In this document: in pieces, positions 671 to 61,333 of the stretch
Layout: the number at the start of each line of letters is the position of its first letter
Position numbering within the stretch: position 1 is the stretch's first letter
Virus record (IMG/VR): IMGVR_UViG_3300038468_000223
Coordinates: 41,512-105,511 of that record
Length of the DNA: 64,000 nucleotides
DNA from: a virus
Strand: one strand, 5' to 3'
Translations under genes and position numbers: made by a program
Notes under the pieces: model-generated
What the model was told of the DNA's origin: nothing
The model's input: the letters and a program-made list of their open reading frames with translations, nothing else
Databases searched by the model: none

Positions 671-937
671 ATGAAACTAGGACTGGTTTTTCTCACTGCG
701 ATCGTGGTGGTTTCTTGCCAAGAAAGCGTGACGACGCCGCCGCAGGGACCCGGCACGGAGTTCCCGTGCGGCTACCGCGGCGTCGACTGCGGCGACGAGA
801 CGTGCTGCTACGAGGGCGACGTCTGCGGCGGCGCACCGTTCACCGGGTGCCCGGCGGACACGTGCTGCTTCACCGGCGAGGACGCGGTCGGGTCCAAGAA
901 GCCGTACCCGAAGGTCCGGCGGCGCCACACACAGTGA
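671..937 (+). CDS. Small Cys-rich lipoprotein
   Basis: Signal peptide with lipobox-like VVSC, GGAGG SD, many Cys. Confidence 0.7.
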   Translation: MKLGLVFLTAIVVVSCQESVTTPPQGPGTEFPCGYRGVDCGDETCCYEGDVCGGAPFTGCPADTCCFTGEDAVGSKKPYPKVRRRHTQ

Positions 938-949
938 CCCCCGTCGTTC

Positions 950-1025
950 GGCGCGCCGTGCAGGGGTCGAACCTGCAGCCTTCCAGCTCTAACGACTGGA
1001 CGCTCTACCTTTGAGCTAACAGCGC
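950..1025 (-). tRNA. tRNA-like gene with 9-nt anticodon loop (UCGUUAGAG); identity unclear
   Basis: Acceptor GCGCTGT/ACGGCGC, D arm GCTC/GAGC, T arm GCAGG-TTCGACC-CCTGC, anticodon stem TCCAG/CTGGA. Confidence 0.8.
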
Positions 1026-1026
1026 G

Positions 1027-1103
1027 TGGTGGGAGGGGCTGGACTTGAACCAACGACCTCCTCGAGACGAGCCCGAGGCGCTCTGACACTGAGCTACCCT
1101 CCC
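1027..1103 (-). tRNA. tRNA-like gene with aberrant anticodon arm (CCTCG-GGCTCGTCT-CGAGG); encoded CCA
   Basis: Acceptor GGGAGGG/CCCTCCC, A73-CCA, T loop TTCAAGT. Confidence 0.8.
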
Positions 1104-1108
1104 GCGAT

Positions 1109-1436
1109 CTACTTCAGCAGCGGCAACGACGCGACGTGGCGCCGCAGGACCTCCTTCCTCCTCGGATGGAGGCCCAGAGCCATGAGCTGGCCGTGGTAGG
1201 GGGGATCGGGCTCGTGGACGGCCGTCAGCGCGACGCCGGCGGCTCGCAGGCGGGCTTCCTCGCGCGCGAGCGACACCTCGTCGGGGACGGCCAGGACCAC
1301 CGCGTAGGTCCCGGGACCGAGGCCGCCGGGAGAGGACTCTCCGGCGGCGTGGCAGACTTGCGCGGCTTGTATGCCCCTGGGCAGGTCCGCGCGGACGATC
1401 ACGTAGTGGGTGACGGGACTAGGCGATTAGCGACAT
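1109..1436 (-). CDS. Peptidyl-tRNA hydrolase PTH2-like; start uncertain, possibly reached by a +1 frameshift from ATG at 1436
   Basis: YVIVRADL..G.QAAQVCHA, VVLAV, HEPD, C-terminal LPLLK are typical of PTH2-like proteins; track ORF 1109-1402. Confidence 0.8.
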
Positions 1437-1580
1437 GGCGCCCCTCTGCGTCGATGGTCGTCCCCAGCGTGCGGACGATCGCCGCCGCTGTCAAGAAGAA
1501 CGACGGGGCTCCACCGGTCGGCGCGCCGGGCGCCGAGGGCGGTCTCGAGGAGAGGGGCGACCCTCGACGCGGTCACGACG

Positions 1581-1988
1581 TCACGGCCGCGGTTCCTGGG
1601 GCTCCGAGAGGCCGTCCAGCTCCTCCTCGGTGAGGCCCTCGAGCGCCTTCACGATCGTTATCACACGAGATTTTGGACAGATGCAGATCTCGCGGCACTC
1701 GGCGTCGATGATCTTGTACCAGCCGTCCTTCACCCGATCTTCGTACGAGTCGGTGTCTCGGAGGGGCGCGGCCAAGAAGCCGGGCTCGTAGGTCCAGCGG
1801 TAGCCCGGCGGCGGCGGCCGGATCTGGATCGGTTCTCCCACGTGCTTCTGCATCGCCATGGAGACGAGCTGCGCTTCGCGAAAGCTCGGACAGATGCAGA
1901 ACTCGACGAACCGCCCATCGACCTCGAGTGGCGCCGTTGCGAGGAGCACAGTGATCTTGCCCGGCGGGCTCGGGATGAAACGAAACAT
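1581..1988 (-). CDS. Hypothetical protein
   Basis: ORF in minus-strand operon; internal EFCICP/EICICP duplication. Confidence 0.6.
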   Translation of the reverse strand: MFRFIPSPPGKITVLLATAPLEVDGRFVEFCICPSFREAQLVSMAMQKHVGEPIQIRPPPPGYRWTYEPGFLAAPLRDTDSYEDRVKDGWYKIIDAECREICICPKSRVITIVKALEGLTEEELDGLSEPQEPRP

Positions 1989-1995
1989 GGGAAAA

Positions 1996-2601
1996 TCATG
2001 GCCTTTCTTTGTTCAGCAGCTCCCGGAGGCGCGCACCCGCCTCCGCGAGGGGCATAGCGCGCCACCTGCGGTCCTCGAGAACCGCGCACGCCTCGTCGGG
2101 TCCGAGGCCGCCCCTGCTTGCCAGGGTCTCGAGCGACTGCCCGCCGTGGTTCTTGCGCGCCTGGTCCTCGTGGGCGGCGAGGGCGGACCACGGTACGGTC
2201 AGCGGCCCGGCGTACGTGCGGCACTGCTCGTAGGTGAGGAAGATCGGAAACTCCTTGAACGGGGCAGCACCGTCTTTCTCGGCGGATATCGCTGTTCCCG
2301 CGTCACGCGCGCCATGCTCGCCGCGTTCGATGGAGTCGAGAACGCGTTGAACTTCGATGTGCAGAGAGCTGCGGTAGTATTTCAAGATTCGTCCGCGTTC
2401 GTCGGCGCGACCTTCTTCACGAAGATCTTCGATCGGAGACGACTTAGGGCGGCCCTTGTACATGGCGACCCGAAGCCGATTGCAGACCCCTCCGAGAACG
2501 GGTGGCTGCTTGAAGACCCCACGTATCAGGTTGATGTCGCAGATGGACTGATGAAGCTCTTGGACCTCTTCGTCGTCCAGCGGAATGACGATCTCCCACA
2601 T
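1996..2601 (-). CDS. Hypothetical protein
   Basis: AAGGAG SD; protein-like composition. Confidence 0.6.
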   Translation of the reverse strand: MWEIVIPLDDEEVQELHQSICDINLIRGVFKQPPVLGGVCNRLRVAMYKGRPKSSPIEDLREEGRADERGRILKYYRSSLHIEVQRVLDSIERGEHGARDAGTAISAEKDGAAPFKEFPIFLTYEQCRTYAGPLTVPWSALAAHEDQARKNHGGQSLETLASRGGLGPDEACAVLEDRRWRAMPLAEAGARLRELLNKERP

Positions 2602-2606
2602 TTTGG

Positions 2607-3395
2607 CTACTCCTTGAACGGGTGCGTTTTGCTGTACGCCGACGCGAACGACAACCGCGCCCGGGCCTTCGGGCAGCCGTCCTCGTTCTCACCACTGTAG
2701 CCACAGAGGGTCCCCGAGCGGCGGATGCTCGCCCGGGCGATGTGCAGCGCCACGCGCACGGCGAGACGGCGGTCCGCGAGCAGGTCCTTGCCGTAGTAGA
2801 GCGGGCGTCCCTTCGCCCCCCACGCGCCGACCCACCCGCCGTCCTCGGTGAGCGCGATGCCCCCGTAGGCGTGGATCTGGAAGATGGAGACGGCGATGCC
2901 CTGGTCGCAGTCGCCGGATCGCAGCGTGAGGGCCTTGCCCGCGCCCCGACGCCACTTCTCGCTGTTGCAACTCCCGTCGTCGACGTGCTGCCAGAAGTGC
3001 GACTCCCAGAAGCCGATGGCGGCGACGAGGATGGCGGTGCGCGCCTTGTTGACGTCCGTCTTCCAGATCGGCTCCTCGCCGGGCTCGCTCACGACGTCGA
3101 CGATGTCGCGTGCGATCGCGTCGTAGTGAGCGATGCTGCGCCCGGGCATCGTCGCCGCCGGCGCCCAGCGCTTCATCGCGGCGAGCACGTAGGCCTCGAG
3201 CGCCTCGTTTCGCGCAGCCGGCTTGGCCGGCTTCGCGCCCATAGAAGAGGAAGGGGCGGGGACGGGGACCGGGGCCGGAGAAGCGGAGGCCTCGGCGGCG
3301 GCGGCGTCGACGGGGGCCTCCTTGGAGACGGTGGCGGGTTTGGTGCAAGCGAAGAGCACCGCGGCGATGAGCGAGAGCTTCATGAAGGTGTTCAT
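2607..3395 (-). CDS. Lipoprotein with lysozyme/lytic transglycosylase-like domain
   Basis: MNTFMKLSLIAAVLFAC lipobox; ES(HF) catalytic-type motif and D.G.AVSIFQI. Confidence 0.55.
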   Translation of the reverse strand: MNTFMKLSLIAAVLFACTKPATVSKEAPVDAAAAEASASPAPVPVPAPSSSMGAKPAKPAARNEALEAYVLAAMKRWAPAATMPGRSIAHYDAIARDIVDVVSEPGEEPIWKTDVNKARTAILVAAIGFWESHFWQHVDDGSCNSEKWRRGAGKALTLRSGDCDQGIAVSIFQIHAYGGIALTEDGGWVGAWGAKGRPLYYGKDLLADRRLAVRVALHIARASIRRSGTLCGYSGENEDGCPKARARLSFASAYSKTHPFKE

Positions 3396-3442
3396 GGTGC
3401 CGGAGCTTGCTGTCCCTGGTGGGGATGTCAAGTTGGGTCGCG

Positions 3443-60379: not shown

Positions 60380-60561
60380 CGAAAATCCTGTCCCGAACGT
60401 CATTTCGCCTCTCGAAGTACGCCATCATCGGCGTCGACCCCTCCGTCGCCGCCCCCGACACCACCCACACGTGGACCCTCGTCGTTCTTGGCCGATCGCG
60501 AGAGGTCGCCGCGAGCAACGACCGCGAAGCGATCGAAGCCGCATGGCGCTTGATGAATGTC

Positions 60562-60643
60562 GGAGAGTGAACCGCGCGGGCGGACCTGCTTGGAACGCAG
60601 CGTGGCGCCGCAAGGCGCTCCGGATCGAGACCGGCTCTCTCCT
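60562..60643 (+). tRNA. tRNA-Ser(GGA), 8/4 type
   Basis: Long variable arm; T stem CCGG/CCGG, T loop ATCGAGA. Confidence 0.75.
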
Positions 60644-60655
60644 CTCGCTTGACTT

Positions 60656-60742
60656 GGAGGGTTGGCCGAGCGGCAAGGCTCCGGCGTTGAATACCGGTGA
60701 CGACGCGCGAGCGTCGCGGGGGTTCGATCCACCCACCCTCCT
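60656..60742 (+). tRNA. tRNA-Ser(TGA)
   Basis: Loop GTTGAAT, long variable arm. Confidence 0.8.
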
Positions 60743-60749
60743 CTCTCTT

Positions 60750-60835
60750 GGAAGACGAACCGGTCAGGCGACCGGACCTGTTTCGAAAACAGAGTGCGCC
60801 CGCAAGGGCGCGGGGATCGAGACCTCCGTCTTCCT
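60750..60835 (+). tRNA. tRNA-Ser(CGA), 8/4 type
   Basis: GGAAGACG/CGTCTTCC. Confidence 0.8.
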
Positions 60836-60840
60836 CCCGT

Positions 60841-60924
60841 GGAAGCTGAACTCGCGATGGAGCGAGGCCTCCCTGCTAAGGAGTGCGCGGGTAACACCGT
60901 GCGGATCGTGACCGCCAGCTTCCT
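60841..60924 (+). tRNA. tRNA-Ser(GCT), 8/4 type
   Basis: GGAAGCTG/CAGCTTCC. Confidence 0.8.
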
Positions 60925-60928
60925 CTAC

Positions 60929-61001
60929 GCCGGGGTAGTTCAGTCGGCAGAACGCGAGCCTTTGAAGCTCGATGTCGCCGGTTCGAGTCCGGCACCCGGT
61001 A
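60929..61001 (+). tRNA. tRNA with TTG anticodon (Gln by anticodon; body looks Phe/Thr-like)
   Basis: CGAGC-CTTTGAA-GCTCG, GCC start, A73. Confidence 0.75.
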
Positions 61002-61002
61002 C

Positions 61003-61257
61003 CTAGACGCGGCGCAGGTGGCTCGCGCGATGAGATCTCGGAGTGCGCGGCTTCTTGCGAGCCACAGCGTCCTTCTCCTCCTCGACGTACGCCGCCTTGT
61101 CGAGCACCGACGCGATGGTCGTGAGGCTGTCCCTGATCGTCTGGATCGACGGCCCGTCGTCCGGGATGCGCAGCCACTTGAGGAACTTCTTCGACATGTG
61201 GACGTCGAAGGTGTCCTCGGACGAGCTGGTGATGCTGAACAAGATCTCGTCGGCCAT
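61003..61257 (-). CDS. Hypothetical protein
   Basis: MADEILFSITS... real part of track ORF. Confidence 0.5.
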   Translation of the reverse strand: MADEILFSITSSSEDTFDVHMSKKFLKWLRIPDDGPSIQTIRDSLTTIASVLDKAAYVEEEKDAVARKKPRTPRSHRASHLRRV

Positions 61258-61333
61258 GGGGGCGAAACGTAACCAGCGTCGAACGCCGAGCAAGCGCTGA
61301 ACGACGAGGGGCACAGGTGGCGGCGGGGCTCGG

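Follow-up and report, generated by a model that had tools for sequence, protein, structure and literature searches.

What reads a long DNA motif that recurs in both orientations along the genome of a virus, and to what end? The question is raised by a 64-kb stretch of DNA (here called the window) that forms the final part, genome positions 41512-105511, of the 105,511-bp IMG/VR record IMGVR_UViG_3300038468_000223 (G000), an uncultured virus from a wetland metagenome. A preliminary description of the window had listed sixteen copies of a bipartite motif and proposed that they bind a viral protein. We find that the motif is more frequent than this, that it is spread evenly along each strand taken separately, and that a relative of very different base composition has a homologous motif, with half of the mappable sites at orthologous places. 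The reading that we prefer, tentatively and as somewhat short of an even call, is that the motif serves the viral replication module as a signal for initiation (priming) on single strands, with the encoded primase-polymerase (Prim-Pol) as its most likely reader.

A two-part motif and its distribution on the two strands

In an alignment of all copies, the left box GAACGWYGRGG is separated by 2-4 pyrimidine-rich nucleotides from an invariant CAC, which is followed by ~8 informative G/T-rich bases; the whole spans ~30 bases, with no conservation upstream of the motif. The two-part form was thus correctly recognized from the outset, but the motif runs beyond the CAC(T/A)GG initially given as its right half. 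The pattern as first written has 10 exact matches in the window versus none in 100 dinucleotide shuffles, and 18 matches in the whole record versus none when the pattern is reversed. Scoring with a two-block weight matrix (sites accepted at ≥22.3 bits) gave 32 sites in G000, the next score being 16.0 bits and the null maxima 14-21 bits. The sites divide equally between the strands (16 each) and 18 of them fall inside the window, so that the copies first reported are real and their number was an undercount. CAC follows 28 of the 29 exact left boxes in G000, the lone exception being a chance match within a tRNA gene, and the base preceding CAC is C or T in 23 of the 32 sites (counted from the site lists). 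Also confirmed were the identities noted between single copies (22 bp between those at window 932 and 8658, 20 bp between those at 51873 and 61298). Single copies show no consistent fold or hairpin in either orientation. As judged by database scans, the exact motif is private to this virus: a scan of IMG/VR returned 80 stretches and one of JGI metagenomes 16, all of them single matches at chance level.

Copies had been placed within conserved genes, and this is true of the Prim-Pol, UvrD, PolA and LysM genes, in which all three reading frames are used; yet only 9 of the 32 are situated deeper than 30 nt within a gene (21.5 expected, P<5e-5), and most are at gene junctions. The intragenic copies occupy tolerant places. 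In the Prim-Pol gene the motif (window 11639-11664, plus strand) encodes residues 182-189 of a disordered linker, in PolA (27867-27892, minus) it lies at residue 125, in the linker between the DUF4326 and SLOG domains, in UvrD (20515-20538, plus) at residue 441, in a loop before motif VI, and in the LysM protein (45774-45797, minus) in a P/T-rich linker. Further copies are found within a 189-aa gene (13725-13748, minus), over codons 7-13 of an 88-aa gene (26721-26746, plus), within a 623-aa gene (33443-33467, minus; a weaker copy of 22.5 bits that fills a large minus-strand gap) and at the 5' end of the AAA_25 helicase gene (7201-7226, plus; likewise weaker, 22.6 bits). Outside the window, a copy in the gene for an SNF2-family helicase has replaced existing codons with no change of length relative to eight homologues, which argues against insertion of a mobile repeat. 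Since the intragenic copies are read in all three frames and in both orientations, the constraint is on the DNA and not on the peptide, as had been proposed; sense and antisense copies relative to local genes are equally frequent (14:14 among 28 strong sites, counted from the site lists), and the sites are kept in a relative of very different GC content. A constraint of this kind implies a sequence-specific viral reader.

At the junctions, many sites overlap a stop or start codon, as in aTGAACG or, on the other strand, CAGTGA, and two unrelated genes start MN(V/D)(E/G)APTGW. The copy at window 8652-8675 (minus) overlaps such a CAGTGA; that at 21083-21106 (minus), the convergent partner of the UvrD copy, takes up the space from a stop codon to the ribosome-binding site that follows; and that at 51874-51897 (plus) comes after an aTGA stop, its 3' part doubling as a ribosome-binding site. 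Another lies at the 3' end of a gene (53523-53546, minus; one mismatch, TAACG) and another at a junction in a block of minus-strand genes (61299-61322, plus). Near the tRNA genes, one copy (926-949, minus) lies directly 3' of tRNA(tta) and is the divergent partner of the copy at 1498-1522 (plus), whose GAACG end is 3 nt from a TTGACA on the opposite strand, and one (60463-60487, minus) sits in the tRNA block, ~90 nt past an HNH endonuclease gene. The inverted pair noted upstream of the capsid region is as described: two abutting head-to-head copies at 39467-39517 (39467-39491 minus, 39492-39517 plus), between genes for proteins of 712 and 146 aa. Most of the larger non-coding gaps have no copy, so that available space does not by itself account for placement; one abutting pair does lie within the second-largest non-coding gap (1.46 kb), and outward-facing copies form the exact borders of a low-GC non-coding gap of 525 bp (genome 2871-3395) that coincides with the minimum of the cumulative GC skew. 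Only three sigma-70-like promoters were found; none is at a motif copy (nearest site ~350 bp off), and the motif was rejected as a promoter element. Divergent promoter regions have no strong site, and no iterons were found near the pair at genome 27.1 kb.

Spacing was examined for each strand and for the pooled set. The 16 plus-strand sites have a coefficient of variation (CV) of gap length of 0.43 (P=4e-4) and a largest gap of 12.8 kb, and the 16 minus-strand sites a CV of 0.28 (P<3e-6) and a largest gap of 10.8 kb (P=2e-4), several of their gaps measuring 7.66-7.75 kb. The three weakest accepted sites sit inside the largest gaps. The 32 sites pooled are less even (CV 0.72, P=0.03; largest gap 6.9 kb, P=4e-4), because for seven of the 16 sites on the minus strand there is one on the plus strand no more than 600 bp away (P=0.016, rotation null). 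Inverted couples cluster at two distances, roughly 500-590 bp (five pairs) and 1-6 bp. The alternation of orientation, which had been noted as strict for window 931-27872, holds at 24 of the 32 transitions genome-wide (P=0.009) and follows from two interleaved, roughly periodic series. Evenness on each strand therefore indicates that some reader acts on each strand separately. An exact 127-bp repeat is present at both ends of the record (genome 1-127 and 105385-105511); as this is a usual k-mer length of assemblers, the map is probably circular, the genome itself being perhaps circular or permuted, and the repeat is weak evidence for true terminal repeats. On the resulting 105.4-kb circle the two abutting pairs are 53.9 kb apart, that is, nearly opposite each other, an arrangement to which we assign a chance probability of ~5%.

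A motif-bearing relative and motif-less relatives

A search with the Prim-Pol family retrieved one IMG/VR record, G006, with a full-length homologue of the G000 protein (42% identity). G006 is a 59.3-kb, 51%-complete fragment of 37.6% GC, compared to 67% GC in G000, and the two have 24 proteins in common, with identities of 28-55% and an order that is kept in both the replication and the structural module. Its motif, GATCCGWCAARG-N2-3-TCACTGKKGGKK, occurs in ~22 real copies (23 pattern matches, of which one was judged spurious) versus 0-2 in shuffles, and a core pattern common to both viruses (CGWC, RRRG, a spacer of 2-4 nt, YCACWGK) finds 10 sites in G000 and 14 in G006 versus 0-1 in shuffles. 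Information past CAC extends over 8 nt in G000 and 8-9 nt in G006, and the base preceding CAC is C or T in 21 of the 22 G006 sites, by the same kind of count as above. In G006, too, each strand is evenly populated (gap CV 0.27, P=2e-4, and 0.42, P=2e-3) and the orientations are balanced.

When the G006 sites were mapped onto G000 through orthologous anchors, 8 of 16 mappable ones had a G000 site in the corresponding orientation no more than 350 bp away, compared to ~1.7 expected from site density. Among them are those in the Prim-Pol linker (29 bp off), at the junction of the 712-aa and 146-aa genes (33 bp off) and at the 5' end of the helicase gene; the copies at window 8652, 21083 and 33443 also have counterparts, and those at 13725 and 45774 have them ~330 and ~270 bp, respectively, from the mapped place. 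In IMG/VR, more than one copy of the G006-type motif occurs only in G006 itself. The Prim-Pol linker peptides of two closer homologues (P0122 and P0123) back-translate to the motif, from which we infer, at the level of the peptide, that the DNA of these genes carries it as well. The closest homologues of the Prim-Pol and of the SNF2 helicase (P0123 and P0155) are encoded by one 75.6-kb Logan contig. Two observations concern sequences in other contigs. Six IMG/VR contigs of ~51% GC (L224, L225, L227, L229, L233 and L235) have CATCCGACAAAGC(G/T)TTCACTGAAAACC in common, no G000 protein having matched the stretches fetched from them, and a low-depth contig of the source sample (run X1) contains GAAGAACGACGGGGGAGTCC between two 21-nt matches to the window and may derive from a related virus with the same left box.

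Four further relatives of 60-82 kb (G001, G003, G004 and G005), all but G005 of which share several capsid-region genes with G000, have neither the motif nor a comparable dispersed 10-mer, and they also lack the Prim-Pol, the AAA_25 helicase, UvrD and one exonuclease. In these six related viruses the distribution suggests that the motif and the replication module (AAA_25 helicase, Prim-Pol, UvrD and an exonuclease) go together. The ribbon-helix-helix (RHH), NikA-like ORF at window 6642-7085 (minus), which had been named as a candidate binder, is disfavoured, since it does not track the motif: a homologue is present in motif-less G001 and none is detectable in motif-bearing G006. Among GenBank phages there was no DNA match, no capsid-protein match and no full-length Prim-Pol homologue, and in GTDB genomes only relatives of the Prim-Pol catalytic domain were found.

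Prim-Pol as candidate reader and the alternatives

The Prim-Pol gene (window 11095-12246, plus; 383 aa) is hit by the Pfam family PF09250. Its structure model (mean predicted local distance difference test score, pLDDT, of 89) comprises an archaeo-eukaryotic primase (AEP) catalytic domain (residues 1-170) that matches pRN1 ORF904 (Z 15.7, root-mean-square deviation 2.9 Å), a disordered linker (residues 170-189, pLDDT <50), a helix bundle (~190-271) that matches the pRN1 bundle (Z 6.9) and an OB fold (271-383) that resembles PrgE (Z 9.2-9.5) and also PriB, RPA and LEF-3. The best full-length Foldseek matches, which cover both domains, are pRN1, RepB' of RSF1010 and NrS-1. The pRN1 primase requires GTG in the template, starts immediately 5' of it and makes a primer of 8 nt (PMC2034472), NrS-1 Prim-Pol works best on GTGA or GTGG (PMC8718748), and RepB' starts within the GTG of ssiA and ssiB, two inverted 40-nt signals on complementary strands (PMC8567376). 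The invariant CAC of our motif reads GTG on the complementary strand, as in the templates of all three enzymes, and the 8-9 informative bases past CAC sit where a primer would be templated.

In the mechanism that we envisage, the signal, which recurs about every 6.6 kb per strand, would be read on the template strand as 5'-(8-9 C/A-rich bases)-GTG-R-(spacer)-CCYCRWCGTTC-3'. The helix bundle would read GTG on exposed single-stranded template, a second module, perhaps the OB fold, would grip the 11-mer on its 3' side, and the flexible linker would accommodate the spacer of 2-4 nt. A G/T-rich primer would then be made at or just 5' of GTG, copying the C/A tract, and synthesis would proceed in the direction from GAACG through CAC to the tail. 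If forks cross any locus both ways, or if both strands are made by an IncQ-like leading-strand/strand-displacement mode, each strand would need evenly spaced sites of its own. The abutting head-to-head pairs and the outward-facing copies that bound the 525-bp gap might act as two-way start points, with the other sites keeping the displaced or lagging strand primed within ~7 kb. A wider proposition, which we hold a shade less firmly than the priming role itself, is that this virus family fixes its starts of DNA synthesis: some 30 long two-part signals, even on both strands and conserved in place despite a 29-point difference in GC content, would be read by a primase of three modules (AEP, helix bundle and OB fold), and the whole genome would be copied from fixed starts, not from frequent short primase triplets as in other systems.

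Several observations speak against this assignment. Known primases of the family need only ~3-8 nt (PMC2034472, PMC8718748), and a site of ~30 nt is unusually long; RepB' makes its extra contact on the opposite side of GTG and with the inclusion of a hairpin, of which we see no consistent equivalent; and half of the close pairs are convergent, ~540-590 bp apart, which priming does not predict. The Z score of the helix bundle by itself is middling for a helical domain. The co-occurrence, moreover, involves just two motif-bearing and four motif-less genomes, in which the helicase, UvrD, the exonuclease, a small methyltransferase and several genes of unknown function agree with the motif in distribution just as closely.

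The principal competitor, which we nevertheless consider unlikely, holds that the sites belong to a viral repressor or roadblock protein acting genome-wide in the manner of stoperators or of P1 C1, with a monomer on each asymmetric site, the abutting pairs serving as two-sided operators and the pairs ~550 bp apart as repression loops. It would be suited by the presence of some 30 asymmetric sites, most of which occupy short spaces between genes or overlap start and stop codons, by the two abutting palindromic pairs and by the excess of partners within 600 bp, five of whose distances (~500-590 bp) are close to those at which DNA loops most readily; the virus could be temperate, given its tyrosine integrase, and positional conservation in G006 would also befit a regulatory network. 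However, the orientation of the sites is independent of transcription, which stoperators follow, so that the stoperator-like function suggested at first fits less well; no site accompanies a recognizable promoter; many of the larger gaps are empty while sites are squeezed into essential genes; separate evenness of each strand is not expected of an operator network; and no candidate repressor was found, the RHH ORF not tracking the motif. Less probable again is another strand-specific enzyme of the replication/recombination module, be it a helicase loader or a nickase that provides 3' ends for strand displacement as in T5, phiKMV and tf. Evenness per strand and co-occurrence with the helicase, UvrD, the exonuclease and a PD-(D/E)XK protein would suit any strand-specific reader, the nick consensus of phiKMV is likewise two-part and ~19 nt long (PMC3517423), and G000 resembles T5 and phiKMV in having a family A polymerase; the nicked phages described, on the other hand, have all their sites on one strand (PMC3517423), as opposed to 16:16 here, and no homologue of the G000 HNH endonuclease could be detected in G006. 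We give little credence to structural anchors that fold or condense the genome, in which inverted sites would be brought together by a bridging protein, so that the DNA forms loops to be packaged in the capsid. The largest pooled gap of only 6.9 kb and the inverted couples at ~500-590 bp and 1-6 bp are in keeping with such anchors; bridging of double-stranded DNA, however, would call for an even pooled set, whereas the sites are even per strand and clustered when pooled, and what the motif goes with is the replication genes, as opposed to the structural genes that motif-less relatives also have. The partition or condensation role that had been considered fits less well, as it too would call for an even pooled set.

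The remaining three explanations have, in our estimation, very little chance of being correct. One is that a viral tyrosine recombinase inverts segments between opposed asymmetric sites. A protein of the Phage_integrase family is indeed encoded (genome 7528-8520), the sites are asymmetric, and their alternating orientation resembles that of the sfx sites of the R64 shufflon. Inversions would, however, disrupt the genes for PolA, UvrD and Prim-Pol, and the other strand has no alternative coding segments; the two abutting pairs imply crossover spacers that disagree (6 versus 11 bp); and no integrase homologue was detected in G006, itself a partial record, while G004 and G005 have one without having the motif. 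As to inversions, for which the preliminary description had proposed that reads be checked, a 29.7-kb contig (depth 41) and several contigs of a second sample are colinear across six sites, with the qualification that contigs drop rare variants; the contig joints listed (two wetland runs) have sides of 21-25 nt and originate from other organisms. Equally improbable to us is a selfish miniature repeat, akin to repetitive extragenic palindromes (REPs), that has spread by insertion and survives where tolerated. Copies at gene junctions and in disordered linkers, in both orientations and with a few inverted doublets like REPINs, are what it would leave; but the SNF2 copy replaced codons without a change in length, larger neutral gaps are mostly empty, and neither evenness per strand nor positional conservation at protein identities of 30-55% and over a 29-point GC difference is expected of a drifting repeat. 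REP and REPIN elements are extragenic, mostly inverted doublets that go with the transposase RAYT, whereas nine of our 32 sites are intragenic and only two doublets abut, and no RAYT or IS200-type transposase was found among the ~70 G000 proteins scanned with Pfam (about half of 146 gene calls). Last in our ranking is a role at the level of RNA, as a processing or terminator signal or through long-range sense-antisense pairing. The abutting pairs would fold as long hairpins and one reverse-strand copy scored as terminator-like; single copies lack a consistent fold, though, half of the copies are antisense to local genes and equally conserved, and Rfam gives only tRNAs and a transfer-messenger RNA (tmRNA) in the window and two further loci, which together make up ~104 of the 105.5 kb of the record. 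Several specific identities were also rejected: an intrinsic hairpin or terminator, single copies having no consistent fold and the one terminator-like hit being a coincidence; a known RNA family, on the same Rfam result; the ends of mobile elements, given that the five ~550-bp segments flanked by close inverted copies have no sequence in common; and CRISPR targets, the spacers of the virus's own array sharing ≤14 nt with the G000 genome.

Should priming prove correct, plasmid-style single-strand initiation signals would be scattered over a large viral genome and lagging-strand or second-strand synthesis would begin at programmed positions; we know of no earlier virus shown to scatter such signals over a large genome. 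It would also provide a defined pairing of a Prim-Pol with a long template, and a route to how AEP primases gain extended specificity. Conservation from 38% to 67% GC constitutes a natural experiment on the essential positions, namely CGWC, the purine run, YCAC and the G/T tail. Whatever reads the motif, evenness per strand offers a simple signature with which other phage genomes could be screened.

Neighbouring features and likeness to known systems

Because G000 is GC-rich, its genes were called by third-position GC, giving 146 calls; none of the structural proteins tested was recognized by Pfam or PHROGs. The replication module comprises an AAA_25 helicase, AAA_24, Prim-Pol, ThyX, UvrD, two exonucleases and a PolA fusion. 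The AAA_25 (RepA/DnaB-like) helicase gene (window 7127-8194, plus) is present in the motif-bearing G000 and G006 and missing from the four motif-less relatives. PolA (window 27499-30729) is a five-part fusion of DUF4326, SLOG (YAcAr), uracil-DNA glycosylase, 3'-5' exonuclease and family A polymerase, with which the G006 protein aligns only from residue 288 on. The 712-aa protein next to the abutting pair (window 37328-39466) has many database relatives that match only ~30% of it, some bearing LAGLIDADG_3 or Hint domains, and on these grounds it probably contains an intein. A small SET-domain protein is encoded at window 5205-5606, and the SNF2-family helicase at L106:14521-16116.

ARAGORN predicts 23 tRNA genes (window 56622-61003 and 950-1103), among them one read with a tta anticodon, a SeC(tca) call and, on the minus strand, two that adjoin a Pth2-like ORF; the HNH endonuclease gene (window 59858-60379) lies within this block. 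A full-length tmRNA is encoded at genome 24122-24476 (L106:4122-4476; Rfam RF00023, 100 bits). Further upstream in the genome, a CRISPR array of ~18-19 repeats (genome 5650-7080) is preceded by a Cas12f/TnpB-like gene (4139-5668) and followed by the tyrosine recombinase gene, ~0.8 kb before a close motif pair at 9352 and 9890; between these two copies are three tandem GC-rich repeats of 25 bp (9787-9861). A second recurrent element, GAAAGGGGAA, is found 5-9 nt upstream of the ATG of several genes (genome 11354, 11748, 12545, 13085, 13720, 24488, 51035 and 68681, the last two being window 9524 and 27170); often preceded by TTCGAC and, by eye, an apparent small hairpin, it resembles a shared translation-initiation region.

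Dispersed asymmetric sites have precedents of several kinds. The stoperators of Cluster A mycobacteriophages (bound by L5 gp71) and the C1 operators of P1 number in the tens, and many are intergenic or overlie start or stop codons; P1 has some two-sided palindromic operators, and stoperators point with transcription. Our sites are similar in being numerous and asymmetric and in occupying short intergenic gaps or start and stop codons. They differ in being longer and two-part with a variable spacer, in their evenness on each strand, in lying off promoters, in an orientation independent of transcription and in tracking a replication module. The nick sites of T5, phiKMV-like phages and tf also follow a short asymmetric consensus, two-part in phiKMV, in phages with a family A polymerase, but they are confined to one strand, number ~4-14 and are unevenly placed (PMC3517423), compared to 16 even sites per strand here.

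Closer parallels are found among replicons with AEP primases. Akin to our motif, ssiA and ssiB of RSF1010 are long, replicon-specific signals in inverted orientation on complementary strands (PMC8567376), and RepB', like the viral Prim-Pol, is a replicon-encoded AEP primase whose catalytic domain is joined to a helix bundle through a flexible linker; it starts at a template GTG, as we propose for the viral enzyme. RSF1010, however, has one ssi pair at oriV as opposed to 32 sites over 105 kb; the ssi signals have an essential hairpin and the extra contact 5' of GTG, whereas our sites lack a hairpin and have their second box 3' of GTG; and the viral Prim-Pol has an OB fold in addition. With the recognition described for pRN1 ORF904 and NrS-1 (GTG; GTGA/GTGG; TTTGGTTA) (PMC2034472, PMC8718748) the likeness extends to membership of PF09250, with pRN1 as the best structural match, to the template GTG, which is invariant in the motif, to a purine favoured 3' of it, and to the ~8 informative bases where the 8-nt primer of pRN1 would be templated. 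There, by contrast, 3-8 nt are sufficient, whereas here G000 and G006 alike conserve a further box of 11-12 nt; for these enzymes, long sites that are dispersed and evenly spaced have not been described, and the 11-mer box and the spacer have no counterpart.

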